Shown one piece after another: positions 5,458-48,227 of a stretch of DNA of 64,000 bases. The translations under genes and the position numbers were made by a program. Source of the DNA: Candidatus Latescibacterota bacterium (lineage in GTDB: Bacteria; Latescibacterota; UBA2968; UBA8231); NCBI GenBank assembly GCA_965221775.1, contig CBDCSU010000006.1, forward strand, positions 224,001-288,000, given 5' to 3'. Position 1 is the stretch's first letter. Every line of letters starts with the position of its first letter. Below the pieces are notes generated by a model. That model saw nothing but the letters and a program-made list of their open reading frames with translations. It was not told the DNA's origin and made no database searches.

Positions 5458-7602
5458 TCACCCCCAGGCGAACAGGAAGTTGCCGGTGTGGCCGGTGAAG
5501 TAGTCGACGATCAGCCAGAGGCCGATGGTCAGCATCTGGCCGGCGATCATCCCCAGGAACAGCCCCTGAGTGCAGCGGTAGGTGGTGACGCTCCCGAACC
5601 GCAGGACGAGGACCTTGATGCACCAGGCGACGAAGACGCTGGTGATGGTGAAGGTCATCAGGTTCACCGCCGATACCGGGAAGGCGACCGGGTGGAGTGG
5701 CCACCAGATCAGGCGGTGGCGGGCCCAGTAGAGCAGGGACATGATGCCGCCGCCGCCGAGGAGGAAGCCCATGCCCGGCCAGTAGACGCCGGCGGGCTCC
5801 ATGTTGCGCGCGGCGCTGTCGTAGGCCACCGCCGGCCCGGCCTTGAAGAACCAGCCATCGAGGTTGACGCCGCCGTAGCGGTAGGCGACGTGGAAGATCA
5901 TCCAGAACGAGCCCAGGGTCCCGATCAGCAGGGCCAGGACGAGGGCCAGGAAGACCAGCCGCCGGCTGCGGGCGTCCATGTCCTCGATCAGCTTGAGGGA
6001 ATTGGTGCAGGTGGCCATGGCGAAGGCGCGGACCTCGCTGGCCCAGATGTAGGCCATGGCCATGTTGAAGACGCCCGTGGGGCCCACGAGAGACGAGCCG
6101 AGGCCCATGACGACGAAGTCCGGAGCGTTGACGGGGGCCCGAAGCGTCGCCAGCCCGGCCTCGGCGATGATCCGGGTGATGCCGATGAAGATCACCATGG
6201 CCAGGACGACGAAGAACGAGGAGACCCAGAGCGGCGTGCCCATGATCCACAGCCACAGGATCATGACCGCGGTCCCGCCGAGAGCGCCGATGACAGCCCC
6301 GCGGTAGGGGAGGATCTCGTCGCGGTCGTCGACGCGGGGCGCCCGGCCCAGGGCCTTGAGCCAGACCTCCTTCAGGTGCTCGCGCCCCGTCCACAGCACC
6401 ATGGCGACGAGCACCAGCAGGGCCCCCAGCCCCTGGTAGCCGACAAGGGGTGCGTCGTACACCCCGTGGAAGTGCACCTGCTCCGACTTGATCCCGGCGG
6501 TGGCCAACAGGCTCTTCTGCACCTTGCCGAAGAGGTAGAAGACCCAGACGCTGCCCGATATCCGCGTGTCGATGAAGTAGGTGAAGCCCGCCAGGGCGAA
6601 GTTGAACTTGCCCCCCAGGTACGGTATCGGCAGGTCCAGGGAGACCAGGGGGATGGAGGGGTAGTAGCTCCACAGGGCCCTCATGCTGCCGGCGGCGATG
6701 GGGATGGACATCCCCACCAGCACCGACCAGCGCTTGAAGAAGCCGTTCACCAGGCCTTTCTCGTCCTCGCCGCGGACCATGGCCAGACCGACCTGGGCGA
6801 TGGGATAGCTCAGGCGCTCCCGGTCCATCCACTGGCGCCGCAGGATCACGGCGATGGAGATCATGCAGACGTACAGGGCCAGCAGGAAGACCGCCCACCA
6901 CATGAGCGGCTCGACCCAGGCGCCGTAGGGGATGCTCTGGCCGGGCCGGGAGATCCCCTCGTAGAACAGGGCGTTCCCGGCGCCGTCGTCCACAAGGATG
7001 CCGCGCTCGGGGAAGTGGGGGAAGAGCTTCTCCCGCCACATGTTCTCGGGCGAGGCGTAGTAGAAGACGGCGGTGAGAGAGGGCAGGATGAGCTCGGACA
7101 GACCCATGGTGCACACGGCCGAGACCATGGCCAGCATGGCATAGACCATGATCAGCTCGGCCCGGTTGAGGGCCAGGCTGCGGCCGGACCACGCCAGGGG
7201 CACGTTGCCGAGGGCGCATGTCACGGCGAAGGTGGAGAAGATCAGCCCCGGCGAATGGACATCGACATCGCTCAGGGGCCAGTAGACGTGGAGCCACGCC
7301 CCCGCAAGGGCGATGGCAAGGGCGAGGGCCGCTCTCTTGCCGCGCGCCGCCAGCTTGAAGGCGAGGTTGAGGAACCCGATGAGCACGACGAAGACGAAGA
7401 TCGCCCCCGGGGTGCTGATGTCGGCGGCCACGTAGGCGCCCTTGATGACCATGTTGCTGTAGGGAGCGCTGACGGCCAGGAAGAAGCTCAGGAAGCTCCC
7501 CACGAAGAACCCCCGCCACGTCAGGCGGTGCCGGGACTCCAGCAGGGGCTCCGAGCGCGACTTCAGGTACTGGCGGTAGCTCGGCGCGATTTCCCTGTTC
7601 AC
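5458..7602 (-). CDS. Polytopic membrane protein, DUF6785/DUF6784-like (OPT-related), copy A
   Basis: 714 aa, many hydrophobic segments; YYASPEN.W, LRRQWMDRERLSYPIAQ, WWPLHPV motifs. Close paralog at 19541-21673. Confidence 0.75.
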   Translation of the reverse strand: MNREIAPSYRQYLKSRSEPLLESRHRLTWRGFFVGSFLSFFLAVSAPYSNMVIKGAYVAADISTPGAIFVFVVLIGFLNLAFKLAARGKRAALALAIALAGAWLHVYWPLSDVDVHSPGLIFSTFAVTCALGNVPLAWSGRSLALNRAELIMVYAMLAMVSAVCTMGLSELILPSLTAVFYYASPENMWREKLFPHFPERGILVDDGAGNALFYEGISRPGQSIPYGAWVEPLMWWAVFLLALYVCMISIAVILRRQWMDRERLSYPIAQVGLAMVRGEDEKGLVNGFFKRWSVLVGMSIPIAAGSMRALWSYYPSIPLVSLDLPIPYLGGKFNFALAGFTYFIDTRISGSVWVFYLFGKVQKSLLATAGIKSEQVHFHGVYDAPLVGYQGLGALLVLVAMVLWTGREHLKEVWLKALGRAPRVDDRDEILPYRGAVIGALGGTAVMILWLWIMGTPLWVSSFFVVLAMVIFIGITRIIAEAGLATLRAPVNAPDFVVMGLGSSLVGPTGVFNMAMAYIWASEVRAFAMATCTNSLKLIEDMDARSRRLVFLALVLALLIGTLGSFWMIFHVAYRYGGVNLDGWFFKAGPAVAYDSAARNMEPAGVYWPGMGFLLGGGGIMSLLYWARHRLIWWPLHPVAFPVSAVNLMTFTITSVFVAWCIKVLVLRFGSVTTYRCTQGLFLGMIAGQMLTIGLWLIVDYFTGHTGNFLFAWG
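6824..6954. repeat. 131-bp perfect direct repeat shared by the two DUF6785-like paralogs (second copy 20907-21037)
   Basis: Base-by-base comparison from TCCATCCACTGGCG to GGCCGGGAGAT is identical in both genes. Confidence 0.85.
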
Positions 7603-7612
7603 GGGAGGCGCG

Positions 7613-13054: not shown

Positions 13055-13700
13055 CGTCGAGCCGGACGATCCGTCTCCCCTCCGGGATCACCTCGACGTC
13101 GTGGGCGGCCGCCACCACCGTCAGTCCGCCGCGGTGGAGATCCGCGATCAGCTTCCAGAGGATCCCGGCGTTGCGCCGGTCCAGGTTCGCCGTGGGCTCG
13201 TCGGCGAAGAGCACGTCCGGCCGGTTCGCCAGCGCCCGCGCCAGGGCGGCGCGCTGCATCTCCCCGCGGGACAGGGCGTCCGGCCGGTGGCGCGCCCGGT
13301 GGGCGATGTTCACCCCCTCCAGGAGGCGCTCCGCCTCGTCCGCGTCCCCGCCGCGACCGCCGAACAACAGCGGCAGCCGGACGTTTCCCAGCACCGTGAG
13401 ATGGCGCACGAGCCGGAAGTCCTGGAAGACGAACCCCATGCGCTCCCGGCGAATCCGGGCGAGCCGCCCCGGCGCCGCCGACTCGAGGGCCTCGTCGTCG
13501 AACCTCACGGCCCCGCGCGTCGGCCGGTCCATCCCCGCCAGGAGCGACAGCAGCGTCGACTTCCCCGACCCGGACTCCCCCGTCACCACGACGAACTCTC
13601 CCCGACCGATGGCCAGGGTCACGTCGGCGAGGGCCGTCACGCTGGTTCCCGGCTGGGGGAACTCCTTCCAGACCCCGCTCGCCGACAGCAGCGCCGTCAC
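13023..13700 (-). CDS. ABC transporter ATP-binding protein (LolD/MacB/FtsE-like)
   Basis: Walker A GESGSGKST, GFVFQ Q-loop, LSRGEMQR signature variant, Walker B LFADEPTANLD, H-loop. Start GTG 13700 overlapping the permease stop. Confidence 0.92.
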   Translation of the reverse strand: MTALLSASGVWKEFPQPGTSVTALADVTLAIGRGEFVVVTGESGSGKSTLLSLLAGMDRPTRGAVRFDDEALESAAPGRLARIRRERMGFVFQDFRLVRHLTVLGNVRLPLLFGGRGGDADEAERLLEGVNIAHRARHRPDALSRGEMQRAALARALANRPDVLFADEPTANLDRRNAGILWKLIADLHRGGLTVVAAAHDVEVIPEGRRIVRLDDGRIASDEHR

Positions 13701-18711: not shown

Positions 18712-19470
18712 CTAACCGAGCCGGGACACCCAGGCGTCGACGACGGCGTCGACCATGGCCTGACCGTGCCCGGCGTTGGCGCTCCAGCTCGTGCGCTCCT
18801 CGCCCTCGACGCCGCAGTACCAGGGGGCGTTGCCGTCGAGGCGGTCCTGCTCGACGAGCTCGGGACGGGTGGCAATGAGGAAGGACGTCTCGTTGTAGCC
18901 GGCGTGGTCGCCGCCGGCCGGGGGCGACGCTTCCGGCAGGATCATCGGTTCCACCTGGACGCTCCCGAAGTCGCCCCACCTGTCGCGCAGCGCCGGGTCC
19001 GCCCACCAGCCACGCGGGTATACCTCGAGCACCCGCTCCCCGGACAGCTCCGAGGCGGCCTTCGAGAACGACTGGGCCAGGGGGCCCCCCATTCCCTGGT
19101 GCATGATGATGACGACGACTCGCTTGAACCCCATCTCGAGGAAGTTCCGCAGCACCGACTTGACGACGCGGTGGAAGCCTTCGTAGTCGGGGTCGATGGT
19201 GCCCTCCGCCGGCCCGCCCAGGGCGTAGCCCGTGGGCCCGTAGTCGAAGGAAGGCGCGATGACAGCGTCGACGCGCTCGGCGATGCGGGCGCAGACCTCC
19301 TCGACGATGATCGTGTCATGGCCGATGGCCATGTGCGGGCCGTGGGTCTCGATACAGCCGGCGGGCACCAGCAGGGGCTGGTCGGCGGCCACGGCCGCTC
19401 TCAACTGGTAAGGACGCATGTGCTTGAGGTACATGGGTGGTCTCCCGGATGGGTTGGTCAGGCGCGCCAC
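18712..19470 (-). CDS. Creatininase / amidohydrolase (PF02633-like) family protein
   Basis: PAGCIETHGPHMAIGHD and GGDHAGYNETS metal motifs. Confidence 0.82.
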   Translation of the reverse strand: MARLTNPSGRPPMYLKHMRPYQLRAAVAADQPLLVPAGCIETHGPHMAIGHDTIIVEEVCARIAERVDAVIAPSFDYGPTGYALGGPAEGTIDPDYEGFHRVVKSVLRNFLEMGFKRVVVIIMHQGMGGPLAQSFSKAASELSGERVLEVYPRGWWADPALRDRWGDFGSVQVEPMILPEASPPAGGDHAGYNETSFLIATRPELVEQDRLDGNAPWYCGVEGEERTSWSANAGHGQAMVDAVVDAWVSRLG

Positions 19471-19540: not shown

Positions 19541-21673
19541 TCATACCCAGGCGAAGACCCAGTTGTTGGTCTTGCCGGTGAAGTAGTCGATGATCAGCCA
19601 GAGACCCATGGTCAGCATCTGGCCGGCGATCATCCCCAGGAACACCCCCTGGGTGCGGCGGTAGAGGTTGACGCCTCCGTAACGGAGAACGATGACCTTG
19701 ATGAGCCAGGCGATGAAGACGCTGGTGATGGTGTAGTACATGAGGTCCACGGCGGCGATGGGGAAGCCGATCGGGTGCAGGGGCCACCACGGCAGGCGCT
19801 GGCGGGCCAGGTACAGCAGGGCCATGATGCCGCCGCCGCCGAAGAGGAAGCCCATGCCCGGCCAGTAGACGCCGGCGGGCTCGAGGTTGCGCACGGCGCT
19901 GTCGTAGGCCTTGGCCGGTCCCAGGTTGAAGAACCAGATGTCGAGGTTGACCCCGCCGTAGCGGTAGGCGACGTGGAAGATCATCCAGAACGAGCCCAGC
20001 GTCCCGATCAGGAGGGCCAGGATGAGAGCCAGGAAGACCAGCCGCCGGCTGCGCGCGTCCATGTCCTCGATCAGCTTGAGGGCGTTGGTGCAGGTCGCCA
20101 TGGCGAAGCAGCGGACCGCCTGGTTGGCCCAGATGTAGGCCATGGACAGGTTGAAGACGCCGGTGGGGCCGACGAGAGAGGATCCGAGACCGAGGATGAC
20201 GAAGTCGGGGGCGTTGACGGGCGTCCGCAGGGTCGCCAGCCCGGCTTCGGCGATGATCCGCGTGATGCCGATGAAGATCGCCATGGCCAGGACGATGAAG
20301 AGCAAGGAGACCCACAGCGGCGTACCCATGATCCACAGCCACGCGGTCATGACCGCGATCCCCCCGAGGGCGCCGATGACGGCGCCGCGGTAGGAGAGGA
20401 TCTCGTCCCGGTCGTCGACGCCGGGCGCCCGGCCCAGGGCCTTGAGCCAGACCGCCTTCAGGTGCTCGCGGGCGGTCCACAGCACCACCGCCACCAGCAC
20501 CAGCAGGGCCCCCAGCCCCTCGTAGCCGACCAGGGGGGCGTCGTGCACGCCCGAGATCACCTGCTCCGACTTGATCCCGGCAGTGGCCAGCAGGCTCTTC
20601 TGGACCCGGCCGAGGAGGTAGAACACCCACAGGCTGCCGGATATCCTCGTGTCGATGAGGTAGGCGAAGCCGGTGAGGGCGAAGTCGACCTTGCCGGAGG
20701 CGTAGGGCATGGGCAGGCGCAGCAACACCATCGGTATGGAGGAGTCGTAGTTCGACATCGCCCTGAAGCTGCCGGCGAACAAGGGGACGGCCATGCCGAT
20801 CCACACCGACCGGCGCTTGAAGAAGCCGTTCACCAGGCCCTGCTCGTCCTCGCCGCGGATCATGGCCAGACCGGCCTGGGCGACCGGGTAGCTCAGGCGT
20901 TCCCGCTCCATCCACTGGCGCCGCAGGATCACGGCGATGGAGATCATGCAGACGTACAGGGCCAGCAGGAAGACCGCCCACCACATGAGCGGCTCGACCC
21001 AGGCGCCGTAGGGGATGCTCTGGCCGGGCCGGGAGATGCCCTCGTAGAACAGGGCGTTCCCGGCGCCGTCGTCGACCAGGATCCTGTGCTCGGGGAAGTG
21101 GGGGAAGAGCTTCTCCCGCCACTGGTTCTCCGGCGAGGCGTAGTAGAAGACGGCGGTGAGAGAGGGCAGGATCAGCTCGGTGAGGCCCATGGTGCACACC
21201 GCCGAGACCATGGCCAGCATGGCATAGACCATGATCAGGTCGGCCCGGTTGAGGGCCAGGCTGCGGCCGCACCACGCCAGCGGCACGCTGGCGATGGCGC
21301 AGATCAGCGCGAAGGTGGAGAAGATCAGTCCGGGCGAATGCACGTCGACGCCGCTCAGGGGCCAGCAGGCCCAGAGCCAGGCGGCCCCCAGGGCGGCGGC
21401 GAAGGAGAGGGCCGACGCCTTGCTGCGCGCCGCCAGCTTGAAGGCGAGGTTGAGGAACCCGATGAGGACGACGAAGACGAAGATCGCCCCCGGGGTGCTG
21501 ATGTCGGCGGCCACGTAGGCGCCCTTGATGACCATGTTGCTGTAGGGGGCGCCGATGGCGAGGAAGAAGCTGAGGAAGCTCCCCACGAAGAACCCCCGCC
21601 ACGTCAGGCGGTGGCGCGACTCGAGGAGGGGCTCGGAGCGCGACCGCAGGTGCCGGCGGTAGACCCGGGGCAT
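19541..21673 (-). CDS. Polytopic membrane protein, DUF6785/DUF6784-like (OPT-related), copy B
   Basis: C-terminal ~710 aa of ORF 19541..26167, aligning end to end with 5458-7602. Start ATG 21673 (or GTG 21682). Confidence 0.78.
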   Translation of the reverse strand: MPRVYRRHLRSRSEPLLESRHRLTWRGFFVGSFLSFFLAIGAPYSNMVIKGAYVAADISTPGAIFVFVVLIGFLNLAFKLAARSKASALSFAAALGAAWLWACWPLSGVDVHSPGLIFSTFALICAIASVPLAWCGRSLALNRADLIMVYAMLAMVSAVCTMGLTELILPSLTAVFYYASPENQWREKLFPHFPEHRILVDDGAGNALFYEGISRPGQSIPYGAWVEPLMWWAVFLLALYVCMISIAVILRRQWMERERLSYPVAQAGLAMIRGEDEQGLVNGFFKRRSVWIGMAVPLFAGSFRAMSNYDSSIPMVLLRLPMPYASGKVDFALTGFAYLIDTRISGSLWVFYLLGRVQKSLLATAGIKSEQVISGVHDAPLVGYEGLGALLVLVAVVLWTAREHLKAVWLKALGRAPGVDDRDEILSYRGAVIGALGGIAVMTAWLWIMGTPLWVSLLFIVLAMAIFIGITRIIAEAGLATLRTPVNAPDFVILGLGSSLVGPTGVFNLSMAYIWANQAVRCFAMATCTNALKLIEDMDARSRRLVFLALILALLIGTLGSFWMIFHVAYRYGGVNLDIWFFNLGPAKAYDSAVRNLEPAGVYWPGMGFLFGGGGIMALLYLARQRLPWWPLHPIGFPIAAVDLMYYTITSVFIAWLIKVIVLRYGGVNLYRRTQGVFLGMIAGQMLTMGLWLIIDYFTGKTNNWVFAWV

Positions 21674-21744
21674 CGCCTTCACGCGAGGCACCTCGGCAGG
21701 TGGGGGGCGGAGTCGGCCGCGCCGGCCATGGCCACCAAGGGACG

Positions 21745-24700
21745 TCAACCTTCCCCGGCGGCGGCCGCGGCAGCGCTCTCCGCCAGCATCCCCTCGGCCG
21801 CCTTCCGGTGATGGGCCCTGGCCTCCTCGGTGAACGTGTGCCACAGCAGGAACTGCTTCCGCAGGGTGTTCATGAAGCCCTGGTTGAGCCGCCGCCACGA
21901 CGCCGTCTCGCCGCTGACCCGCTCGATGAAGACCTCCACCTGGTAGATGGCGGCCGCCGGGGAGGGCACGAAGTCGAGCTGCAGGTACTGGCTCACCCCC
22001 TTGTCGAAGGGGGCCAGCCAGGTCAGCATCTGCAGGGAGTACTCGCGAGCGCCGGCCTCCCCCCCGGTGACGAGGCGCACCTTCTCGGCGCAGAAGTCGC
22101 CGATGGAATCCTCGTTGGAAGACTCGAACCAGCCGGCCAGGAACCCGCTCAGCCCCCGGACCTCGCCGGTGCCCACGGCAAAGGGGAAGTCGAACTCCCA
22201 GCGGTCGCCCTCCGGCGCCGGCGGCACCCAGCGCCGCACCGTGTCCGGCACCGCCCTGGCGGCGGCGACTCGCGCCGGGTAGAGGGTCGACAGCAGGACC
22301 AGGGCCATGACCATGAGGGCCGCGGTGACCGCCGCCGTGGAGGAGTAGTTCAGGTCCATGCCCTGCACCAGCCCGAGGCCCAGCAGCAGCTTGGCCGACC
22401 CCTGGCCCAGGAGGTATCCGAGGGTGACGCCGAGAACGGCGTAGACACAGGCCTCGGCCACGAAGAGCAGGGCGATGTGCATCGGCGCCAGCCCCACGGA
22501 GGAGTAGACGCCGATCTCCCGGAGACGCTCGTACACGGCGCCCAGCATGGTGTTGAGGACGATGAGGGCGGCGATGACGATGGGCACGAGCAGCGCCGCG
22601 AGTCCTTCCACCGCCGTCAGGCCCACGGAGGTGTAGGAGGAGACCTCCAGCTCGCCCGTCCCGGGGTCGCGGAGGCTGGCGAAGAGGGTGGCCGCCACGC
22701 GCGTCAGGAAGCCCTCGAGCAGGGGCCGGCCGTCGGCAGTCTCGTCGAAGCGGACGCCGACGGAGCGCAGGGTGCCGCCGGCGACCCACACGGCGCCGTA
22801 GGGCACGATCAGGACGTTGTCGGCCGCCATGTGGAGGAAGGGCTCGATCCGGTCCGGACCCGCTTCCTCCTCGATCTCCATGGAGACCCTTTCCCGGCCC
22901 CCGGGCAGCCCCACCTCGCCGCTCTGGAAGTCGGCCGGCGTGAGCGGCTCGGCGTCGAGATCGCGGATCGCGGCCAGCCGGCCGGCGTCGACGATGCCGC
23001 CGACCACGAGGTCCCGGCCGAAGACGCGAACCGCGGCCCGGCCCACGTCGTCCACGCCGATGCCGAGGGCCGCGGCCATCCTCTCGGGAAGGAGGCACGT
23101 GCTCTCGTCGACCGTCTCGAAGAACCGGCCGGCCACCAGGGCTTCGTCGATGCCGGTGACCCGCGTCTCCTGCGGCGACAGTCCGAGCAGGCCGGCGGCG
23201 AGCGTCGCGCCCGCCGGCCCCTGGACCTCGATGTAGCTCTTCGGCTTGCCCGCCTCGGCCACCAGCCAGTTGCGCGGACTCACCACGCCATGGCCGGAGA
23301 AGTGGGAGCGGACGTAGTCCAGGGTCGGGGGCGACAGCTCCTTCCAGCCGGGGTGGCGGATCAGGACGCCCTCGTAGCGGGCCTCGTGGGCGGTGGGGAA
23401 GGCGAGGAAGGCGAGCTGTTGCCGGAAGGAGGTGAAGGAGAGGACGGTGAAGGTGAGCAGGGTCAGCGTCACCAGGGTCAGAGTCGTGCGCAGCTTGCGG
23501 CGCCGCATGTTGGAGATGCCCAGCATGAAGGCGGCGTAGGAGGCGCTGAGGCGGTTGATGTCGGCGCGGCGCACCTGGGAGGCGCGGGCCTGGAACTCCT
23601 CCACGTAGTGGTTGAAGCGCGAGAAGATCATGGCGCAGACGAAGACGGCCATGGCCATGATGGCGAAGGCCAGGAGGATGATCGCCGGGTGGGCGATGTC
23701 GAAGGCCGGATGCACCTGGGAGATGGCGGCCCAGACGATCGCCATGATCAGGGCGAAACCGGACAGCTGCCAGCGGATGTCGGCGGCGGCGAAGATCAGG
23801 CGCTCGCCGAAGAAGGCGGCCGGCAGCACCAGGGCGAGGAAGAACACGAGCCCCTTGATGACGTCGTTCAGGGTCGCCGTCACGTCCGGGTAGGCCCGCG
23901 AGGTGACTCCCCGGGCGGCCCGCACCCCGGCCATGAAGGCGTCCCACTCCCGCCTCTCGGCCGCGGCCCCGGCCTGGTCGATCAGCTCGCGGCCGTGGGC
24001 GTGCAGCGCCGCCAGCCGCGGATTCTCGATGGCGTGGTCGCGCATCGCCGCCAGGCGCTCGTCGTTGATCCGCCACATGTCCCGCACCGCCAGGTAGTCG
24101 GTGCGCTCCAGGGGATCCCGGCCGACCACGTACCCGGTGCCGCGCGGGTCGGTGCGGCTGTTGGTGAGGATCATGCTGTCCGACATGAGGTACACGAGGC
24201 TGTCGCCGGCGGCGGCGAAGGCCACCGCCACCGGCTCCAGGACGCCCTCGCCCTTCGCCACGCCGTACTCCTTGGGCGCCACGCCCGTGTGGGTCGCGAC
24301 CCGGATCGGCCCGACGGCCGTGAGGGACCGGGGGTCGACGAGGCCGTAGAAGGGCCGCGGCACGCAGGGGAAGACGACGAGGGTCTTGTGCTCGCCGGCG
24401 AAGCGGATGGCCTGGGCCAGCCTCTGGCCGTGGTGTCTCCGGGCGCGCTCGCCGCTGTCGGGGGCGTAGACGATGCCGCCGGTCTCGGGGTCGAGGACGT
24501 AGGCGCTCACCGGCACGGCCCCGAGGGGCAGGCCGGGGATCACGGCGCTGCCGTTGCCGTCGGCCAGGTGGAAGCGGAAGGCGCGCACGCCCTTGTGGGG
24601 CTTGAAGCCCAGCTCGGCCCGCCGCCCGGCGCCGGCCCCCAGGGCGACGATGGCCCCCTCGACGACCCGGTCGGGGACCTGGCTGCGGCGCGGGAAGGCG

Positions 24701-26136
24701 CGCACGTCGACCCGGAAGGTGCGCAGCTCGTCCTCGAGGACCGGGCCGAACTCCTCCAGGTCGGCCAGCAGCCGGGGATCGTCGAAGGCCCGGGTCAGGA
24801 TCTGGTTGAGGAAGGCGCTCTGCCGGGACAGGTTGTCGAAGTCGACCCGCTGCGGCCGGTCCAGGGGCGTGTCGACGACGAAGCGGCCGTCGCCGATGGT
24901 GACGAAGGAGAGGGCCACGAGCCCCGCGGCCATGGCCACCTGGCCGTCCACGGTGACTCCCCCCGGCACGTAGGTCGACCAGTCGAGGCCCTTGTGGGGA
25001 CTGATGCCGTTGACCAGGGCGCGCTCCGCCCGGCGCCCCAGTCGCGGCGCCGCCTCCTCGGCGTAGGCGGTGAAGGCGCGGCCGAAGGGAACGTAGAACC
25101 GCTTGATGTCGTAGCGGTCGGTGTTGTTCCAGAGGCCGATGCGGTCGCTGCCGCTGGTCAGGTCCAGGCCGATGAAGAGATCCGGATTCAGGGGCTTCTC
25201 CATGAGCCCGGCGTAGTCCGGGTGGGTGCGGGCATGGCGGTCGAGGAAGTCGACGATCCCCCGCTGGGCCAGGAAGTGGGCGCCGGCGGCCACCAGGACG
25301 ACGGTCCGCGCCGGCGGGCGGCGCTGGAGATGCCGGGCCAGCTCCAGCAGCGCGGCGATGCCGCCGGCGGTCTCGGCCGAGGGCGCCAGGGCCGGCACGA
25401 TGGAGATGCCGTCGTAGTAGGCCTGGACGACGATCGTCTCCCCGCCGAGCTCGGGGTGGTGACCGGGGATCACGCCCCAGACGTTGCGGCCCTTGCGCGA
25501 GACCCAGTCCATGCGGCTCCCCAGGCGCGCGTCGAGGGGTCCGTCCTCGGCCAGCGCCCTCAGGCGGGCGCCGGCGGCGGCGCCGATCCAGAGCCTGGGT
25601 ATGTCGAGGGGGACGGAGACGAACTTGGCGCCCGCCTCGCGCCCGGAGGTGGCCTGCGGCTCGATGAAGACAATGGCGCGGGCGCCGAGGGAGGCGGCCT
25701 CCAGCCAGCGGTGGCCCGTGTTGAACTCGAGGAGGACGATGCTGCCGGCCAGGTCGAGGCCGGCGTACTCGGACAGGTGCCCTGCCCCGCCGTAGATCAG
25801 GTGCCCGGAGAGCCCGGCCGCCGGCACCGTGGGGGTCCGCACGTGGTTGGGCCACAGGCCGTGGAGGCGGAAGCGCTCGCCCGTGGCGGTGAGGGTGAGG
25901 TCGCCGCCGCGGTCGAGGGGCACGGTGACCGGGTACTCCTCGACGGTGACCTCGCGGACGCCGGCGGCGGCCAAGGCGTCGGCCACGTAGTCGGCGGCCC
26001 GGTCGCTGCCCGGGTAGCCGCTGACCCGGGAGCCGACGGAGGCCATGAACTCCACGGTGGCGCGGATGCCGTCCGCCTCCGCCCGGGCGGCGGCGCACAG
26101 CGCCGGCAGCGTCAGCCAGAGGATCAGCCGTCGCAT
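21745..26136 (-). CDS. 1463-aa fusion: signal peptide + PA domain + degenerate M28 peptidase fold + TM bundle + FtsX/MacB-like permease
   Basis: GSRVSGYPG, LIYGGAG...AGSIVLLEF (PA), NVWGVIPG...IVVQAYYD...AALLELAR (M28 fold), RRKLRTTLTL and VYERLREIGVYSSVGL...LYPARVAA (FtsX). Confidence 0.8.
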   Translation of the reverse strand: MRRLILWLTLPALCAAARAEADGIRATVEFMASVGSRVSGYPGSDRAADYVADALAAAGVREVTVEEYPVTVPLDRGGDLTLTATGERFRLHGLWPNHVRTPTVPAAGLSGHLIYGGAGHLSEYAGLDLAGSIVLLEFNTGHRWLEAASLGARAIVFIEPQATSGREAGAKFVSVPLDIPRLWIGAAAGARLRALAEDGPLDARLGSRMDWVSRKGRNVWGVIPGHHPELGGETIVVQAYYDGISIVPALAPSAETAGGIAALLELARHLQRRPPARTVVLVAAGAHFLAQRGIVDFLDRHARTHPDYAGLMEKPLNPDLFIGLDLTSGSDRIGLWNNTDRYDIKRFYVPFGRAFTAYAEEAAPRLGRRAERALVNGISPHKGLDWSTYVPGGVTVDGQVAMAAGLVALSFVTIGDGRFVVDTPLDRPQRVDFDNLSRQSAFLNQILTRAFDDPRLLADLEEFGPVLEDELRTFRVDVRAFPRRSQVPDRVVEGAIVALGAGAGRRAELGFKPHKGVRAFRFHLADGNGSAVIPGLPLGAVPVSAYVLDPETGGIVYAPDSGERARRHHGQRLAQAIRFAGEHKTLVVFPCVPRPFYGLVDPRSLTAVGPIRVATHTGVAPKEYGVAKGEGVLEPVAVAFAAAGDSLVYLMSDSMILTNSRTDPRGTGYVVGRDPLERTDYLAVRDMWRINDERLAAMRDHAIENPRLAALHAHGRELIDQAGAAAERREWDAFMAGVRAARGVTSRAYPDVTATLNDVIKGLVFFLALVLPAAFFGERLIFAAADIRWQLSGFALIMAIVWAAISQVHPAFDIAHPAIILLAFAIMAMAVFVCAMIFSRFNHYVEEFQARASQVRRADINRLSASYAAFMLGISNMRRRKLRTTLTLVTLTLLTFTVLSFTSFRQQLAFLAFPTAHEARYEGVLIRHPGWKELSPPTLDYVRSHFSGHGVVSPRNWLVAEAGKPKSYIEVQGPAGATLAAGLLGLSPQETRVTGIDEALVAGRFFETVDESTCLLPERMAAALGIGVDDVGRAAVRVFGRDLVVGGIVDAGRLAAIRDLDAEPLTPADFQSGEVGLPGGRERVSMEIEEEAGPDRIEPFLHMAADNVLIVPYGAVWVAGGTLRSVGVRFDETADGRPLLEGFLTRVAATLFASLRDPGTGELEVSSYTSVGLTAVEGLAALLVPIVIAALIVLNTMLGAVYERLREIGVYSSVGLAPMHIALLFVAEACVYAVLGVTLGYLLGQGSAKLLLGLGLVQGMDLNYSSTAAVTAALMVMALVLLSTLYPARVAAARAVPDTVRRWVPPAPEGDRWEFDFPFAVGTGEVRGLSGFLAGWFESSNEDSIGDFCAEKVRLVTGGEAGAREYSLQMLTWLAPFDKGVSQYLQLDFVPSPAAAIYQVEVFIERVSGETASWRRLNQGFMNTLRKQFLLWHTFTEEARAHHRKAAEGMLAESAAAAAAGEG

Positions 26137-27863
26137 CAGCCCCCGGGCCGCACGGCGCTGCCGCCACCCTCCTGCTGTACCAGCGCTTTCAGGCTCTCTT
26201 CGTGGATCCTGACCCGGGGCTCGTACCGTTTCCGCAGCTGGCCCAGAAACCGGTGGAAGGCCGCATCGCGCTTGCGGCGCAGGACCAGCGCCCGGGCGCG
26301 GGTCTCGACCTCGGCGAAGGGCCGGGGGCCGGCTCCGAGGTTCGACTCGACGACCCTGAACACCGAGTGGCAGCGGTCTCCCGCCGCCCCGGGGGGGGAC
26401 GCCAACCGGGGGGCCGGCACCGCCACTTCGACGGGGCCCAGGAGGTCGCCCGGCGCGGCTCCCTGCGCGGCTTCGAAGAGGGCCTCGTGCGCTGCTCTCT
26501 CGTAGCCATGGAGGTGGAACCTGCCGCTGTCCGGGATGGCCCGGCGCCGCAGGGTGTGCTCCAAAGCCAGGAGCCGCAGATCCTCACCGCCCTCGATCCG
26601 GCGGCGCAGCGCTACCGCCTCCTCGCGTGTGGCCACCAGGACCTCGTCCAGCGTCAGGCTCTCCTGGGGGACGAAGAGCCGCGAGTTCTCGTGGTGGAAG
26701 CGCCGGGCCTCGGCCTCGTCCACGGCGACGTCGCGGGTCACCTCCTTCCGGATGACCCCGATCAGGCGTTCCTGTTCTCTGGCCTGGCGCCAGGCGGCCA
26801 TCTTCGGCTCGCGGTCGATGCCGGCCTCGCGGGCGGCCCTCACCGCCAGCGCGCGGGGAACCAGGACGGACTCGGCGAACCCCCGCAGCTGCCCGCGCAC
26901 ATCTCCGGAGAACCCCCGGTAGTTCTCGCGGGCCGAGTCGACGAACTCCCCCACCGTGATGGCGCCGCCGTCGAACTCGTAGAGCACCGTGGCGCGCTCC
27001 GCCCCGGAGAGCGCTCCGCCGCTCTCCAGACGCGCGGCGAGAAGCTCGAAACCGTCTTCCCGGGGACGCGCGTCCAGGGCCTCCCGCAGTTCCCGGCCCA
27101 GCTCCGTGGACCGGACGCGGGCCTTCTCCCGGTGGAGCCCGGCTTCCACCAGACGCCGCACCCGCTCGAGGGGGACCGTCACCTCCTCCACGACCTGGAA
27201 GACGCCGTAGGAGCCGCCCGGCAGGGGCAGCGGCTCGGAGATCTCACCCTCCCCGAGGGGATAGACCTTTTCCCGCATGACGGGCAGGGGCATCTGGTCC
27301 CTGGTGACGTACCCGGTGTACAGACCCCCCTGGGCCGCCGTCGGACCGTGGACGGAGCGCTGCCTCGCCAGCTCCTCGAAATCGGCGCCGCCCTCGAGGA
27401 GGCGCACGATCTCCTCGGCCTCTTCCCTGCTCCCCACATCGATCCGGCCGCACCTGACGGCGCGGTCTCGTCCGGTCTTCAGGTAGTGGTCGCGGACCTC
27501 CTGCTCCTCGAGGGTGATCTTCGCGTCCACCTCCCGGGCCAGGAACTCCTGCACCAGCCGCCGGGTCCATTCGCGCTCCAGCCCGCGGCGCATGTCGGGG
27601 TCGCGGTCCCATCCCCGCGCCGCCGCCTCCCGCAGGAGGATCTCCTTGTCGATCAGGGCCTGCAGATGCTGCCGCCGGCCTTCGATGCCCGCCTCCCTGG
27701 ACCTCAGGCTCTCGGCCAGGCGCTCCTCGTAGCGGCGCAGGTCGGATGCGTGGATGCGGGAGTCCCCCACCTCGGCCAGCACCGGGCCGCGGGGGTCTGC
27801 CCCGCAACCGGTCAGGACCGCCCCCGCGGCCAGGATCAGCGCCGGTCCGGCAGGTCTCATCAA
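26136..27863 (-). CDS. Parvulin/PpiC-type peptidyl-prolyl isomerase lipoprotein (SurA/PrsA-like, two rotamase regions)
   Basis: Lipobox LTGC, LQALIDKEILLREA, GADFEELARQRS...AAQGGL, GEISEPL; second EVLVATREEA...GEDLRLLA region. Confidence 0.85.
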   Translation of the reverse strand: MMRPAGPALILAAGAVLTGCGADPRGPVLAEVGDSRIHASDLRRYEERLAESLRSREAGIEGRRQHLQALIDKEILLREAAARGWDRDPDMRRGLEREWTRRLVQEFLAREVDAKITLEEQEVRDHYLKTGRDRAVRCGRIDVGSREEAEEIVRLLEGGADFEELARQRSVHGPTAAQGGLYTGYVTRDQMPLPVMREKVYPLGEGEISEPLPLPGGSYGVFQVVEEVTVPLERVRRLVEAGLHREKARVRSTELGRELREALDARPREDGFELLAARLESGGALSGAERATVLYEFDGGAITVGEFVDSARENYRGFSGDVRGQLRGFAESVLVPRALAVRAAREAGIDREPKMAAWRQAREQERLIGVIRKEVTRDVAVDEAEARRFHHENSRLFVPQESLTLDEVLVATREEAVALRRRIEGGEDLRLLALEHTLRRRAIPDSGRFHLHGYERAAHEALFEAAQGAAPGDLLGPVEVAVPAPRLASPPGAAGDRCHSVFRVVESNLGAGPRPFAEVETRARALVLRRKRDAAFHRFLGQLRKRYEPRVRIHEESLKALVQQEGGGSAVRPGG

Positions 27864-30763
27864 TCCCTCAATCCTGTGTAGACGGTGAAAAAGGACAGGG
27901 CGCTGGTATCCGAACGGTCCTTGCCGGCGAAGGTGTCGATCTTCCGTCTGTCCACGCGAATCCCCAGGGTGGCCATCAGTCTGTATCCCAGGTAGGTGCT
28001 CGCATTGGCCAGCTGCAAGGCGAGGGACAGCTCATCGAAGTCCCCCGTGGCATCGCCCGGATTCAGGCCCGCCACGGGATCCTCGTCGAAGGCGACCTCC
28101 CGCTGGGCGAAGTCGCGGAACACGACCTGTTCCAGGCCGACGATCACCGTGCTGTGGCTCAGCACCGGGATGTCCAGCCGCAGGGAGGCGATGCCGGCCC
28201 ACTCCCGGCGCTCGAAGACCCGGTCGTTCAGGAGCCACTCCGTGTTGAAGGGGGTATCGTCGACGAACAGCTCGTGCTTGAAGCGCGGACGCAGCTGGAT
28301 GCCGCGGCCCAGGGGATGGAGCCAGTCGAGCTTGTTGATCAGACCGAGGCGCCGGGTGTGCCTCGGGATCTTCCGCCCCCCCCGGTCCACGGTGACTTCC
28401 TGCCGCTGCCGCAGCACCTCGTGGATCAGCCGGCTCTCGGAGTTGATGCCGCTGTCGCCGAGGCGCTCGAAGCCGAGGGACAGCTTGTTGACCCAGGTGT
28501 CCGGCAGGCCCAGCGGGTCCGGGACCGGGGTCATGCCCGCGGCCCGGAACCGCCCGTGGAGCCACTGGACCAGGTCGTCCGGGATGTCGTCCTCGACCCG
28601 CTTCAGCATGTCGTACACCGTCACCTCGCCGACGCCGGGCCAGCTGCGCTCGAAGGCGAGCAGGGCATAGCTGGTGACGTTCGTCTCGCCCGTGGAGGGG
28701 CGGCGCTGCCGCTGGTGGCCCGCGGTGATCCTGGCGCCCGGCAGGATCCACGCTCCGCCGTAGACGTTGTATCCGCGGCGGTCCCGCGGGTACGGGTAGT
28801 CGGGTTCGTCGTCGTTCTCGAAACGGTCCCCCCAGCCGTTGTTGTTCATGTCCAGGCCGAAGAGATACTCGGGCCGGTCGACGCCGTAGCGCAGGAAGGG
28901 CTCGGCGTAGTCGGGGATGTCGTTGGGCCGCTCGCGGGTGTCGTTCTGGTTGAAATCGGAGATGAAGTCGTTGTTCTCGTCGAGGCCGGGAAAGACCGCC
29001 TCGTCGGCGTAGCCCTCGAACCCGCGCACCACGCCCAGGCCCCGCTCCCCTGCCGTGCGGCCGTCGTCGAAGATGCGCTTCTGGTCGTTCTTGCGGTCGT
29101 TGTCGTCGTTGTCGTCCACCAGGTCGTAGAGGTAGCGGGAATGGGCCCGGGGCGTGTCCGAGTAGTCGACGCGCCCCGCCGTGTCCAGGAACCGCATGGA
29201 GGTCGAGTACTCGGCGTCCATGCCGAAGGCCTCGCCGAAGAGGTAGTACGGGTAGAAGTCCCTGGCCACGTTGACCATCCACCCTTCGGCGTAGGGATCG
29301 CCCCCGATGCCGGACGAGGTGGTGTGGCTGGCGCGGCTCACGTCGGGGTACTTGCGGTAGCGGTGGTTCACGTTGAACTCGCCGTAGAGCCGGAACCCGG
29401 CCAGGTCGTCGGCCTCCACCGTGAAGCCGAGGACCTGGGTGGCCGTGGGCAGTCCGTAGTCGAAGACCACGGAGCCCAGGTTGGAATGGTCCTGCACGTT
29501 CCCCGGCGCCCGCGCCAGGGTGCGGAAGACCGGACGCGGGTCGAAGAGGGCGTTGTCGGTCTGCTGGTCGGAGGTGACCTCGACCTTGTAGTCGTTGCTC
29601 AGGACCATCCGGAAGCGGACCCTGCGGATGTTGTTCACCACGTCGGCCAGGGGCACCACCGTCTCCAGATCGTCGAGGACGGCCGGGTCCGGATCGGCGA
29701 GGACGTATTCCAGCCGGATCCGCCCCGGGTCGCCGGCGCCTTCGGCTGCCAGGAAGCCGTCCCGGGCGACACCTCCCGAAACCCTCGGGTGGAAGCCGAT
29801 CCGGCTGCCCACCAGCACCGTGTCCAGCTCCCCGATCCGGGTGGTGATCTCGATGTCGTGGGCGAAGAGGGCGGGACCCGCCTCGCCGTCGGCCGGGGAG
29901 TCGTCGGTGATCTGCACCGTGATCCGGTTGATGCGCGCCCCCGCCTGGTGGGAGCTCAGCCTCCCGGTGTAGGGACTGCCGTCGAAAGGCCGGGTCGAGC
30001 TGCGCCCGTTGTGGGCGTTCACGAAGGTCCCCCCCAGGCGCACGAAGTCGGTTGCGTTCCACACCGCCCGGAGACCGGCGAGGGTGGTGAACTCGTCGAC
30101 GAAACTGGCCCTCGGCTCCACCAGCGGGACGTTGACCCGGGAGATGAGGGCCGTGGCCGAGCCGACATCGGACATGTAGTCGAACTGGACCCCGTTGAAG
30201 GCCGTCTTGCGGAAGGTCATGGGCGTCAGGGTCGTGCGGATCTCGTCGCCCACGGTGACCCGGAAGTAGTGCTGCCCCTTGGTGTCGGAAGAGACCACGA
30301 GGGAGCCGAGGAGGTCCTTGTACTCACCCGTCTTGTGGAGCAGGTTCCCTTCGGACGTCCGCGGCCGGCTCTGCTGCCAGTCGTAGATCAGCCAGCCGCG
30401 GGTGAGGAGCCTGCCGTAGAGATCGTACTGATGGTCGCCCTCCTGATCGGTGGCCAGGTACCGCAGGTAGCGCTGGCGGGCGTAGTTGGTCTCCTCCCAG
30501 CGCCAGCGGTACTGGTTGGCGGTCGGCCGCGGCCTGTACCACTTCTTCAGAGAGGGATCGAAGATCGACCCGTCGACGCTGGGAGCCGCCGGGTAGTAGC
30601 TCACCCGGCCGCCCTCGCGGAGGCCGAGGCGGTTCCCGTAGTCCCAGCGGGCGGCGGCGGGGCCGGCGCCCAGAATCACCGCGAGGGCGGCGACGACGAG
30701 GATCGGCCAGCGGCCGGCGGCCGGGCCGGGCCGCACCGTGCGCGCTCCGGGAACCTCGGACAT
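27860..30763 (-). CDS. Large secreted protein of unknown function (~967 aa), Asp-rich loops, beta-strand-rich; paralog 2
   Basis: Signal peptide ending GPAAA; paralogous to 30763-33561 (YDLYG..LTRGWL..DW, TLTP.TF.K..FNG.Q.D, FPG.DENNDF.SDFNQND). Start re-assigned to ATG 30763. Confidence 0.75.
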   Translation of the reverse strand: MSEVPGARTVRPGPAAGRWPILVVAALAVILGAGPAAARWDYGNRLGLREGGRVSYYPAAPSVDGSIFDPSLKKWYRPRPTANQYRWRWEETNYARQRYLRYLATDQEGDHQYDLYGRLLTRGWLIYDWQQSRPRTSEGNLLHKTGEYKDLLGSLVVSSDTKGQHYFRVTVGDEIRTTLTPMTFRKTAFNGVQFDYMSDVGSATALISRVNVPLVEPRASFVDEFTTLAGLRAVWNATDFVRLGGTFVNAHNGRSSTRPFDGSPYTGRLSSHQAGARINRITVQITDDSPADGEAGPALFAHDIEITTRIGELDTVLVGSRIGFHPRVSGGVARDGFLAAEGAGDPGRIRLEYVLADPDPAVLDDLETVVPLADVVNNIRRVRFRMVLSNDYKVEVTSDQQTDNALFDPRPVFRTLARAPGNVQDHSNLGSVVFDYGLPTATQVLGFTVEADDLAGFRLYGEFNVNHRYRKYPDVSRASHTTSSGIGGDPYAEGWMVNVARDFYPYYLFGEAFGMDAEYSTSMRFLDTAGRVDYSDTPRAHSRYLYDLVDDNDDNDRKNDQKRIFDDGRTAGERGLGVVRGFEGYADEAVFPGLDENNDFISDFNQNDTRERPNDIPDYAEPFLRYGVDRPEYLFGLDMNNNGWGDRFENDDEPDYPYPRDRRGYNVYGGAWILPGARITAGHQRQRRPSTGETNVTSYALLAFERSWPGVGEVTVYDMLKRVEDDIPDDLVQWLHGRFRAAGMTPVPDPLGLPDTWVNKLSLGFERLGDSGINSESRLIHEVLRQRQEVTVDRGGRKIPRHTRRLGLINKLDWLHPLGRGIQLRPRFKHELFVDDTPFNTEWLLNDRVFERREWAGIASLRLDIPVLSHSTVIVGLEQVVFRDFAQREVAFDEDPVAGLNPGDATGDFDELSLALQLANASTYLGYRLMATLGIRVDRRKIDTFAGKDRSDTSALSFFTVYTGLRD

Positions 30764-35754: not shown

Positions 35755-35768
35755 TCCCCCTCGACGGC

Positions 35769-48022: not shown

Positions 48023-48227
48023 GGGACGCGATCCTTGTGTTTGCTGGGGGGCTCTGCGGGTCCCTCGCCTTGCACACGACTCGGATGGCGTCCACCCTTC
48101 GCGGCGGAGTGGCGGCGGCAGGCCGGAACCTCCTTGATTCCGGGCCGGCCCAAGATACCACAACCCGGGGAGAGCGTGCATCCGGGCCGCAAGGCACCAT
48201 CGAATCACTTCCTGACTGGAGCTTCTC

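Follow-up and report, generated by a model that had tools for sequence, protein, structure and literature searches.

In a 64,000-nucleotide window of a Candidatus Latescibacterota genome, one gene encodes a predicted M28 aminopeptidase fold with an apparently remodeled metal site, fused to a complete type VII ABC permease module. Genes of this family nearly always adjoin, or are fused with, genes for remote relatives of OPT permeases. Here, we use A for P0001-type FtsX fusions, with P0001 being the protein in the window, B for proteins carrying DUF6785 and DUF6784, and C for a family of 900-aa membrane proteins. In species-representative genomes, family A is present at no fewer than 558 loci; the source genome holds five paralogues, and our literature search turned up no publication on the family.

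The reading frame of gene A (21745-26136, minus strand) is stop-free, encodes 1463 aa, and has a coding-type GC3 of 0.97; it is one real gene. Two overlapping long reading frames (19541-26167 on the minus strand and 21700-26505 on the plus strand) are high-GC artefacts. The features of A, B, and C given below all lie on the minus strand. Translation puts the ATG and, over residues 1-20, a signal peptide at 26077..26136. That ATG shares 1 nt (TGATG) with the stop codon of an upstream gene for a parvulin/SurA-like PPIase (26136..27863, minus strand; Pfam Rotamase_2, E 1.3e-10), which is translationally coupled to A. Among 80 related loci, the PPIase gene adjoins A only in the three closest (L001 to L003) and is therefore a local operon member, not part of the core. 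With its signal peptide and large periplasmic head, P0001 is shown to be an inner-membrane protein.

The first part of the periplasmic ectodomain (residues 21-470; 24727..26076) is predicted to adopt the fold of PA-containing M28 aminopeptidases. A profile of the family matched the solved structures 2ek8 (E 1.3e-12) and 6hc6 (E 8.4e-10) and, weakly, nicalin (E 0.024) and TfR1 (E 0.043), and the single P0001 sequence fell below the Pfam M28 threshold (17.5 vs 21.3 bits), with no PA domain detected by Pfam in the same kind of single-sequence scan. The AF2 model of the ectodomain (pLDDT 93.1, pTM 0.92) gave Foldseek E values of 1e-25 to 1e-19 against 2ek8, 6hc6, PaAP, TfR1, and GCPII (best 1.8e-25). 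In VIA comparisons, it superposed on 1amp with Z 28.1 and rmsd 2.4 Å over 253 aligned residues, and on 6hc6 with its PA domain with Z 28.6 over 385. On these comparisons, homology to M28 peptidases is well above chance, as the original prediction had proposed from the sequence flanking the active site. That prediction was also right that a PA domain is present; however, it had placed the domain ahead of the M28 fold, and the PA domain is instead an insertion within it, as in the Bacillus subtilis BSAP/YwaD (6hc6), Aneurinibacillus (2ek8), Pseudomonas PaAP (8acg), and Aeromonas AAP (1amp) enzymes. Unlike these secreted aminopeptidases, A is membrane tethered and part of a permease. The remainder of the ectodomain (residues 471-755; 23872..24726) has no Pfam match; by the secondary structure and pLDDT of the model, it consists of a beta-rich domain and, after it, a stalk of three long helices.

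The substituted active-site positions (Y240, D242, E255, H287, F288, D325, and W386) fall within 24979..25419 according to our alignments. All the motifs on which the original prediction relied are present in P0001: NVWGVIPG at 218-225, QAYYD at 238-242, PSAET at 252-256, GIAALLELARHL at 259-270, RTVVLVA at 277-283, AGAHF at 284-288, and FIGLDL at 321-326. We mapped the metal ligands by HMM alignment to 2ek8 and 6hc6 and by MAFFT alignment with two bona fide M28 peptidases from the same genome. In P0001, one ligand His is Y240, the bridging Asp is E255, the catalytic Glu is H287, the next ligand Glu is F288, the ligand Asp is retained as D325, and the fifth ligand, a His, is W386, a replacement that had gone unnoticed. 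The canonical site is thus absent, as predicted, but what had been read as a missing DD motif is an Asp-to-Glu exchange rather than a simple loss. Both Glu residues of the EE motif are indeed gone, with H287 at the catalytic position and F288 at the ligand position. Compared to M28 aminopeptidases, three of the five zinc ligands in A are aromatic (Tyr, Phe, and Trp), in addition to the changes at the bridging Asp and the catalytic Glu.

We scored conservation of these residues in 61 sequences and in 80 sequences. In the larger set, Y240, D242, and H287 are each kept in 79 sequences, E255 and F288 in 76, W386 in 77, and D325 in 77 (plus three with Glu). Because each replacement is kept in 76 to 79 of 80 relatives, we regard the arrangement as a selected new site and not as decay. 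In place of the canonical co-catalytic two-zinc site, these alignments show another set of residues (Y240, E255, H287, F288, D325, and W386) that is strictly conserved. Y240, E255, D325, and H287 could together bind a single metal or a ligand, and catalysis there is conceivable.

Hydropathy and model helices place three extra TM helices (about 759-781, 791-812, and 819-837; 23617..23871), a region with many invariant alignment columns, N-terminal to one complete MacB/FtsX-type permease module (residues 841-1294; 22255..23616). A basic cytoplasmic linker leads into TM1 (886-904); a Porter/Sabre-like periplasmic domain (~905-1175) and TM2 to TM4 complete the module, with the TM2-TM3 cytoplasmic loop at the coupling-helix position. 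It carries Pfam FtsX at residues 1181-1291 (E 8.6e-12) and NCBIfam LolC/MacB matches; its model matched MacB 5gko by Foldseek (E 4.8e-12) and, by VIA, 5nik_J (Z 15.0), 3ftj_A (Z 13.8, rmsd 3.4), and the FtsX chain 8tzj_C (Z 14.0). A MacB fold for the membrane module is confirmed at the level of the predicted structure, and the proposed joining of a PA and M28 unit to one type VII permease through additional TM helices holds.

The C-terminal cytoplasmic alpha+beta domain (residues 1295-1463; 21748..22254) is specific to the family, with many invariant columns and a model pLDDT of about 80-88. It has no P-loop motif and no Pfam match, its fold matches are only borderline (Aha1-C/START-like, Z 9.0; KA1, Z 8.5), and all 11 shorter database sequences that matched it are fragments of the P0001 family. 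This domain is shown not to be an ATPase. Neither the conserved domain nor the adjacency and fusion to OPT-like permeases had been noticed in the original prediction.

Gene B (19541..21673; Pfam E 5.6e-106 for DUF6785 and 4.8e-26 for DUF6784) encodes a polytopic membrane protein and starts 71 nt downstream of the stop codon of A. The window holds a second B gene (5458..7602), 83% identical to the first, paired with a gene for the polytopic C protein P0123 (7613..10315), 11 kb from A; in most related loci, C lies directly downstream of the FtsX fusion. B and/or C occurs within 700 bp of A on the same strand in 78 of 80 related loci, in the orders B-A-C (34), A-B (22), A-C (11), B-A (10), and A-B-C (1); in the remaining two, the upstream flanks end at 404 and 202 bp. 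A and B form one open reading frame in 19 of the 80 loci, A and C in one, and among the 120 database homologues listed, 12 are proteins of 1800-2143 aa that carry DUF6785. All five paralogues of A in the source genome adjoin B and/or C. When all flanking open reading frames of the 80 loci were clustered, only A, B, and C were widely shared. The source genome contains 21 copies of DUF6785, 16 of which are not beside a fusion protein; therefore, the permeases do not need the fusion protein. As a hint of transcription, two RNA libraries contain contigs, 90-99% alike, over portions of A and B, and one contig of 1156 nt spans the A-B junction.

Pfam OPT (PF03169) describes oligopeptide and yellow-stripe-like metal-chelate symporters. 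Scans with this model found matches in 18 of 21 related genomes, and all 12 loci that we fetched encode homologues of C or B. These matches cover parts of the model and score 36.3 and 35.1 bits for two C homologues (L081 and L083) and 36.6 bits for a B homologue (L082), compared to a cutoff of 25.8. The B and C proteins encoded in the window itself have no Pfam OPT match even at E 10, so the link rests on these few above-threshold homologues. Profiles of B and C matched no solved structure, and a profile-profile comparison of B with C was weak (probability 2%, E 0.023). In the Atlas, the named clusters nearest to B carry the labels "peptide transporter" and OPT (0.77-0.79), which we treat as a lead only. 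Family C further differs from OPT proteins in its DxDGDG repeats, which are rich in Asp, and in a Cys/His motif that resembles a zinc finger. At the sequence level, B and C are probably very distant members of the OPT superfamily.

From these data, we tentatively propose, at somewhat less than even confidence, that A serves an OPT-type uptake system as a non-catalytic subunit for substrate capture or gating. A, B, and C would form one membrane complex, in which the dead-peptidase head would act as a receptor that captures substrate in the periplasm. That substrate would most likely be a peptide, held by a terminus through the former active site's carboxylates and aromatic walls, or alternatively a metal or metal-chelate. 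An M42/M20 aminopeptidase gene lies divergently upstream of A in 26 of 80 loci; this synteny is confined to one group of loci related to one another, so the hint of peptide use is weak. The MacB-type module and stalk may provide a mechanical link or gate that passes the substrate to the OPT-like permeases, which would then import it, driven by protons. The comparison with TfR and nicastrin, in which a PA and M28 ectodomain serves binding and not catalysis, is a fair analogy: both TfR1 and GCPII match the ectodomain strongly in structure (Z 24-25, Foldseek E 1e-22 to 1e-19). Compared to these eukaryotic pseudo-enzymes and their relatives (TfR1, nicastrin/nicalin, and GCPII), A has a signal peptide and C-terminal TM helices instead of a type II anchor, and hence the opposite anchoring, along with a different set of substitutions and a fused transporter module. 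We found no evidence of common descent of A with TfR1, nicastrin, or GCPII beyond M28 family membership. We know of no characterized OPT protein with a receptor subunit.

The MacB module might work without ATP or borrow a distantly encoded ATPase, and the main competing explanation, which we consider less likely, is that A belongs to a conventional type VII ABC machine driven by ATP, with an ATPase that all paralogues share and whose gene lies elsewhere; the head and OPT-like proteins would then belong to an extractor, exporter, or importer powered by ATP. Like MacB, LolCDE, FtsEX-EnvC, YbbAP-TesA, HrtBA, and YtrEF, A has an FtsX-type module of four TM helices in which a periplasmic Porter/Sabre-like domain separates TM1 from TM2, and it retains the TM2-TM3 loop motif. 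In other type VII permeases, this loop is the docking place of the ATPase; its near-invariance across family A speaks for a partner that docks there, perhaps an ATPase supplied in trans. A candidate is the orphan LolD/MacB-class ATPase beside uvrB (G000:C4:611857-612633), which has no FtsX gene within about 150 kb and has homologues (E 1e-60 or better) in all 21 related genomes. However, LolD-type ATPases are universal, so this conservation says nothing specific. An array in the source genome (C6:2131823-2159266) contains 26 FtsX matches and one ATPase; since such arrays outnumber their own ATPases, sharing in trans is plausible. Against this explanation, no ABC ATPase, type VII or otherwise, is fused or adjacent to A at any of the 80 loci, nor is a type VII ATPase adjacent to any of the five paralogues, in agreement with the predicted lack of an adjacent ATPase gene, even though B and C are tightly linked and even fused. 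In addition, the family's own conserved cytoplasmic domain sits at the NBD position. A also departs from known type VII systems in its three extra TM helices, its 735-residue N-terminal ectodomain, its unique C-terminal domain, and its obligatory neighbors, which are OPT-like permeases, not adaptors, lipoprotein carriers, or hydrolases.

It is improbable, in our judgment, that the ectodomain is still an enzyme, with the old Zn2 half-site (Y240, E255, and D325) and H287 binding a single hard metal or acting as an acid/base set, such that a periplasmic substrate is hydrolyzed or modified and the product imported by the OPT-like proteins. The near-invariance of Y240, D242, E255, H287, and D325 is typical of functional sites, and the Aeromonas aminopeptidase tolerates a His in place of its catalytic Glu, judging by how PDB entry 2anp is titled ("Functional Glutamate 151 to Histidine mutant"). 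Nevertheless, the two ligands that belong only to the other zinc half-site have become Phe and Trp, which cannot bind metal, and E255 is replaced by Ser/Thr/Ala in three of 80 sequences and by Asp in one. To our knowledge, no M28-fold enzyme uses such a site.

We give still less credence to an FtsEX-EnvC-like regulator, in which movements of the MacB-type module would drive the dead peptidase domain to bind and activate another protein, a periplasmic hydrolase or an envelope enzyme. Type VII ABC modules are described as controlling partners through periplasmic domains, EnvC has a degenerate metallopeptidase (LytM) domain, and FtsEX-EnvC and YbbAP-TesA, like A, have a hydrolase-fold periplasmic component attached to the module; the FtsX chain is also among the good structural matches given above. 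However, the 80 loci share no conserved hydrolase gene, and five paralogues per genome with transporter linkage fit nutrient uptake better than cell-wall control. Least likely is the suggested pairing of A with the LolD-like ATPase at 13023-13700 (minus strand), which is of the LolD/FtsE/MacB class and the nearest ABC ATPase (8 kb, same strand), but whose start overlaps (GTGA) the stop codon of its own MacB-type permease gene (13697-14860), which recurs near A only in L001 and L002, the two closest of the 80 loci, and which has no counterpart near the other four paralogues; of the four loci with any ABC ATPase within 10 kb of A, two have MalK-type sugar-importer ATPases and two repeat this same pair.

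Overall, the observation behind the original prediction, a substituted M28 site on an FtsX-type permease, is confirmed, and its interpretation as a ligand-binding module is partly supported. If A is a capture or gating subunit for OPT-type uptake, the paralogues in the source genome (five fusion proteins and 21 DUF6785 proteins) may be substrate-specific versions, as in nutrient-uptake families.

Gene A occupies positions 21745-26136 of the minus strand and translates without a stop into a protein of 1463 residues (P0001). It shows the codon-position GC pattern of a real gene, with a GC3 of 0.97 within a window of 69% GC. The remaining long ORFs across its DNA are high-GC artefacts, one of them being merely the frame of the downstream gene, free of stops across the entire region. 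The ATG of gene A shares one base (TGATG) with the stop of an upstream PPIase-like gene, and a gene for a polytopic membrane protein with DUF6785 and DUF6784 (gene B; 19541-21673, minus strand) starts 71 bases past its stop. P0001 consists of an apparent signal peptide (residues 1-20), a PA-inserted M28 aminopeptidase fold (21-470), a beta-rich domain with three long helices after it (471-755), three hydrophobic helices seen by hydropathy (about 759-837), one complete FtsX/MacB module (841-1294), and a conserved cytoplasmic domain without a Pfam match (1295-1463). The part of the ectodomain at 471-755 likewise had no Pfam match at E values up to 10. An AF2 model of residues 21-755, based on 61 aligned sequences, reached a pLDDT of 93.1 and a pTM of 0.92; the model of residues 745-1463 was weaker (pLDDT 70.6), with the periplasmic and C-terminal domains reaching about 80-94. 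The topology is coherent, positive-inside charges preceding the transmembrane helix at 886-904 in the hydropathy profile, and is consistent with a head and MacB-type periplasmic domain facing outward and a TM2-TM3 loop and C-terminal domain facing inward.

Relatives of A number at least 291 in the protein database; the 120 homologues listed share 48-98% identity, almost all with lengths of 1430-1515 aa. A scan of one genome per species confirmed at least 558 A loci. The best 80 of these come mostly from MAGs labelled Latescibacterota or Gemmatimonadota/Gemmatimonadetes, with one from Omnitrophota and one from Elusimicrobia. As queries against 10 kb of flanking sequence at each of these 80 loci, we used the neighbour genes of the window, including gene C, which encodes a 900-aa polytopic membrane protein (window copy at 7613-10315, minus strand). 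In 78 of the 80 loci, B and/or C lies within 700 bp of A on the same strand, in the orders B-A-C (34 loci), A-B (22), A-C (11), B-A (10), and A-B-C (1); in the two loci without either partner, the upstream flank ends at 404 and 202 bp. A and B are fused into one ORF (about 2090-2135 aa) in 19 loci, as are A and C in one (L017; 2342 aa). Twelve of the 120 listed homologues are similarly long and carry DUF6785. The window genome has 21 DUF6785 genes and five A paralogues, all five of which adjoin B and/or C.

All-against-all clustering of the flanking ORFs from the 80 loci revealed no further family as widely shared as A, B, and C. An M42/M20 aminopeptidase gene lies divergently upstream of A in 26 loci, and 22 loci have a PspA gene downstream, accompanied by a YbjN/CesT-like gene; a single group of related loci accounts for both sets. 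In the window, a gene for a creatininase-family amidohydrolase (18712-19470, minus strand) follows the DUF6785 gene by 70 nt on the same strand and may be where the operon ends; such a gene occurs near the A module in only two of the 80 loci. DUF6785 homologues in two related MAGs (L021:17093-19240 and L066:7767-9920) contain one in-frame stop codon each, for which a pseudogene, recoding, or an error in sequencing could account. Contigs 90-99% similar to parts of A and B occur in two RNA libraries labelled as sponge and coral metagenome; one of them, 1156 nt long, spans the end of A into B with an intergenic stretch different from that of the window. These contigs give partial cover from related strains, and gaps in it are uninformative. 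Contigs in RNA libraries prove neither transcription nor a single transcript; they suggest, if only weakly, that the A-B pair is expressed in close relatives.

The window also contains other gene groups. Three large secreted proteins with C-terminal FlgD_ig/CHU_C domains, which resemble type IX secretion sorting domains, are encoded at 33577-40270 (minus strand), upstream of and co-oriented with genes for two unannotated proteins of 932 and 1082 aa (27860-33561); one of the three also contains an F5/8 type C (galactose-binding-like) domain. Repeat proteins of the FG-GAP/ASPIC-UnbV (CRTAC1-like) kind number three, one of them with TPR repeats, and are encoded at 10343-13054 (minus strand), 16883-18655 (plus strand), and 46268-48229 (minus strand).

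Pfam identified only DUF6785/DUF6784 in B and nothing real in the window's C, and at E values up to 10 neither protein matched OPT. Across 21 related genomes, the Pfam OPT model had matches in 18. All 12 of the OPT-match loci that we fetched proved to be homologues of C (11 loci) or B (L082), and two loci match both. Scores for PF03169 were 36.3 bits (L081, a C homologue), 35.1 bits (L083, also C), and 36.6 bits (L082, B) against a cut-off of 25.8, each over partial model ranges. The single OPT match in the window genome (E = 2.9e-4) is a C paralogue that adjoins another A paralogue. The Atlas clusters closest to B bear the names peptide transporter or OPT; their scores, 0.77-0.79, serve as a lead only. 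Profile searches of the PDB with the B and C alignments returned no solved structure and nothing meaningful. Taken together, we assign B and C with moderate confidence as putative distant permeases of the OPT superfamily. An hhalign comparison of B with C was weak (probability 2%), and we do not claim that they are homologous to each other; BLASTP detected no similarity between P0001 and the 900-aa protein. A second OPT-like pair lies at 5458-10315 (minus strand), where the C gene is directly followed by a DUF6785/DUF6784 gene (5458-7602) whose product is 83% identical to that of the copy at 19541-21673. This pair looks like the C-B half of a module, with the A-B half 11 kb away. The C family has two features unusual in OPT transporters, at about residues 385-410 and 760-790 of the window protein: a conserved Cys/His motif (CxHxxC...C..H, with a weak Pfam match to Zf_WRKY19) and Asp-rich repeats (DxDGDG..DE) akin to calcium-binding loops.

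The membrane half of P0001 is a permease of the FtsX type. PF02687 matches residues 1181-1291 (E = 8.6e-12, 45.6 bits), NCBIfam reports LolC/MacB matches, and Foldseek and VIA place the membrane half with MacB, LolCDE, FtsX, HrtB, YtrF, and YbbP (E = 4.8e-12, the value for MacB in Foldseek; Z 15.0-11.7); the MacB-type periplasmic domain matches 3ftj_A at Z 13.8. Together with hydropathy, which gives four transmembrane helices, the first two separated by a large periplasmic domain, these matches bear out the original prediction of a type VII ABC permease. Less can be said of the C-terminal domain: its sequence has no Walker motif, Pfam at E values up to 10 found nothing, and an Atlas search with the domain as query gave no usable match. 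A word-based search for shorter proteins with this domain returned 11 matches, all fragments of the A family, and as far as such a search reaches the domain appears confined to this family. Its best fold matches are borderline ones to small alpha+beta folds (Aha1-C/START-like, Z 9.0; KA1, Z 8.5), at a level that denotes no more than a common arrangement; as modelled, the fold is not NBD-like. A search for stand-alone ectodomains gave 36 candidate matches, many of them labelled partial or on short contigs.

We found no ABC ATPase gene, fused or alongside, adjoining A in any of the 80 loci, and none of the 73 ABC matches in the window genome adjoins any of its five A paralogues, in agreement with the lack of an adjacent ATPase gene noted in the sequence. 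Four of the 80 loci have an ABC ATPase within 10 kb of A, all assigned to other transporters: a MalK-type pair of a sugar importer in L021 and L026, and in L001 and L002 the ATPase-permease pair also present in the window. The window ATPase (LolD-like; 13023-13700) had been proposed as a partner of A, which is unlikely because its overlap (GTGA) with the stop of a MacB-type permease gene ties it to that permease. The same genome has a 27-kb array with 26 FtsX-domain matches (G000:C6:2131823-2159266), comprising roughly thirteen tandem double-FtsX permeases of about 790-1150 aa, with one ABC ATPase inside (2145110-2145739) and another 8.5 kb away.

An ATPase encoded in trans could nevertheless drive A, a minority reading that we take seriously. 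The TM2-TM3 loop is nearly invariant across the A family, the window genome elsewhere shares ATPases among many FtsX permeases, and one ATPase of the LolD/MacB/FtsE class stands alone directly downstream of uvrB (G000:C4:611857-612633; L094:6855-7634, minus strand), with no FtsX-type permease within about 150 kb. Homologues of this orphan ATPase occur in all 21 related genomes at E values of 1e-60 or better and are 85-99% identical within the family. Co-folding of P0001 residues 850-1463 with it scored 0.31 against a mark of 0.32, which speaks neither for nor against binding. Another ATPase lacking an FtsX neighbour (G000:C2:28835-29470) sits just 150 bp from the end of its contig, too close for that lack to be informative.

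Structural comparison assigned the head of P0001 to the M28 alpha/beta fold. The head matches the Aeromonas aminopeptidase 1amp at VIA Z 28.1 (rmsd 2.4 A, 253 of 291 residues aligned), 6hc6_A at VIA Z 28.6 (385 aligned), and 2ek8 at Foldseek E = 1.8e-25. Overall, Foldseek (E = 1.8e-25 to 1e-19) and VIA group it with PA-containing M28 aminopeptidases, the Aeromonas aminopeptidase, glutaminyl cyclases, transferrin receptor, and GCPII. P0001 misses the gathering score of PF04389 (17.5 versus 21.3 bits) and matches profile positions 1-65 only, the genome scan gave gene A 21.6 bits "with neighbours in the frame," and by our own count 29 of the 120 listed homologues carry the domain. The family profile of A aligns to 2ek8 (E = 1.3e-12) and 6hc6 (E = 8.4e-10), and a MAFFT alignment that includes two authentic M28 peptidases from this genome (L095 and L096) agrees in register.

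In these alignments, the HxD of M28 corresponds to Y240-Y241-D242, the bridging Asp to E255, the Glu-Glu pair to H287-F288, the next Asp ligand to D325, and the Asp-His of the last ligand to D385-W386. One of the two M28 references is shifted by six positions around D325; the other reference and the strand position favour D325. The five zinc ligands (His, bridging Asp, Glu, Asp, His) are thus absent as a set, their positions holding Y240, E255, F288, D325, and W386, and the general-base Glu that precedes the ligand Glu is replaced by H287. We measured conservation in 80 family sequences, namely the related loci plus three paralogues of the window genome with a long enough match, after removing 9 of 89 HSPs that covered fewer than 200 residues. 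Y240, D242, and H287 are each conserved in 79 sequences, Y241 in 78, D325 (Glu in the other three) and W386 in 77, E255 and F288 in 76, and D385 in 63. The alignments indicate that a canonical two-zinc site cannot form, because Phe and Trp occupy the two ligand positions that belong to one half-site only, and the general base is lost. The replacement site is, by this conservation, under strong selection, and its remaining Tyr/Glu/Asp and His residues could bind a single hard metal ion or else grasp a ligand. Both the PA+M28 fold and the degenerate metal-binding and catalytic motifs noticed in the sequence thus withstood this analysis. Two paralogues (G000:C5:267684-272366 and G000:C4:761152-765636) have an insertion of about 50-120 residues in the M28-like domain, in a single open frame between the parts matching P0001 residues 308 and 315.

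Given the architecture, the rebuilt site, the linkage and fusion to partners, and the lack of an ATPase in cis, the reading that fits best is that A, B, and C would form a three-part inner-membrane complex. The dead-peptidase head would capture a periplasmic substrate, and the stalk and MacB-type module would couple this capture to the OPT-like permeases. We infer the direction of transport, the substrate, and the energy source of this system. Our first guess for the substrate is a peptide gripped at its terminus, because of the aminopeptidase scaffold and the OPT-like partners; our second is a metal or metal-chelate, because of the surviving Tyr/Glu/Asp/His set and because some OPT relatives transport metal-chelates. 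A might instead be an EnvC-like regulator: in FtsEX-EnvC, too, a degenerate metallopeptidase domain accompanies a type VII module, a likeness by analogy only, and the linkage and fusion to B and C weigh toward the three-part complex. That A is a still-active enzyme is an unlikely reading, though less so than the regulator, as the surviving residues might hold one metal ion but the two-zinc site and general base appear lost.

A is homologous to M28 peptidases yet lacks their defining catalytic features, and although it has the fold that defines type VII ABC permeases, no cognate ATPase accompanies it in cis. Transferrin receptor and nicastrin, which use the PA+M28 fold for binding, are similar by analogy only (VIA Z 24.7 for TfR1). 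TfR-like ectodomains, with their lost metal site, have a type II anchor, whereas A has a signal peptide. They also carry a C-terminal helical dimerisation domain; A has a helical stalk at 680-755. The literature, as far as it was accessible, contained no description of the A family. To our knowledge, every characterised MacB/FtsX-type module is ATPase-driven, the fold being otherwise seen solely as the ATP-driven membrane half of type VII systems, and every characterised OPT transporter acts alone.

We tentatively propose, with more doubt than conviction, that the MacB/FtsX mechanotransmission fold has been co-opted without an ATPase, with a new cytoplasmic domain replacing the nucleotide-binding partner, and tied permanently, in many cases through gene fusion, to OPT-like permeases driven by protons, with a remodelled dead-aminopeptidase head as receptor. 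This would be a new hybrid class of receptor-plus-secondary-transporter uptake system, one that has given rise to many paralogues in Latescibacterota-like bacteria. If the module is truly ATPase-free, the definition of type VII ABC systems would change; the naturally occurring A-B fusions, single chains of about 2100 aa, offer ready targets for structure determination. With at least 558 loci in species-representative genomes, the A family joins a MacB/FtsX module, OPT-like proteins, and a peptidase fold with a rebuilt metal site. Habitat is hinted at solely by the sponge and coral metagenome labels of the two RNA libraries, in which close relatives of this stretch occur. Should the complex import peptides or metal-chelates, it would represent a bacterial counterpart of pseudo-peptidase receptors in the style of transferrin receptor and nicastrin, and an unrecognised route of nutrient uptake in abundant uncultured bacteria.
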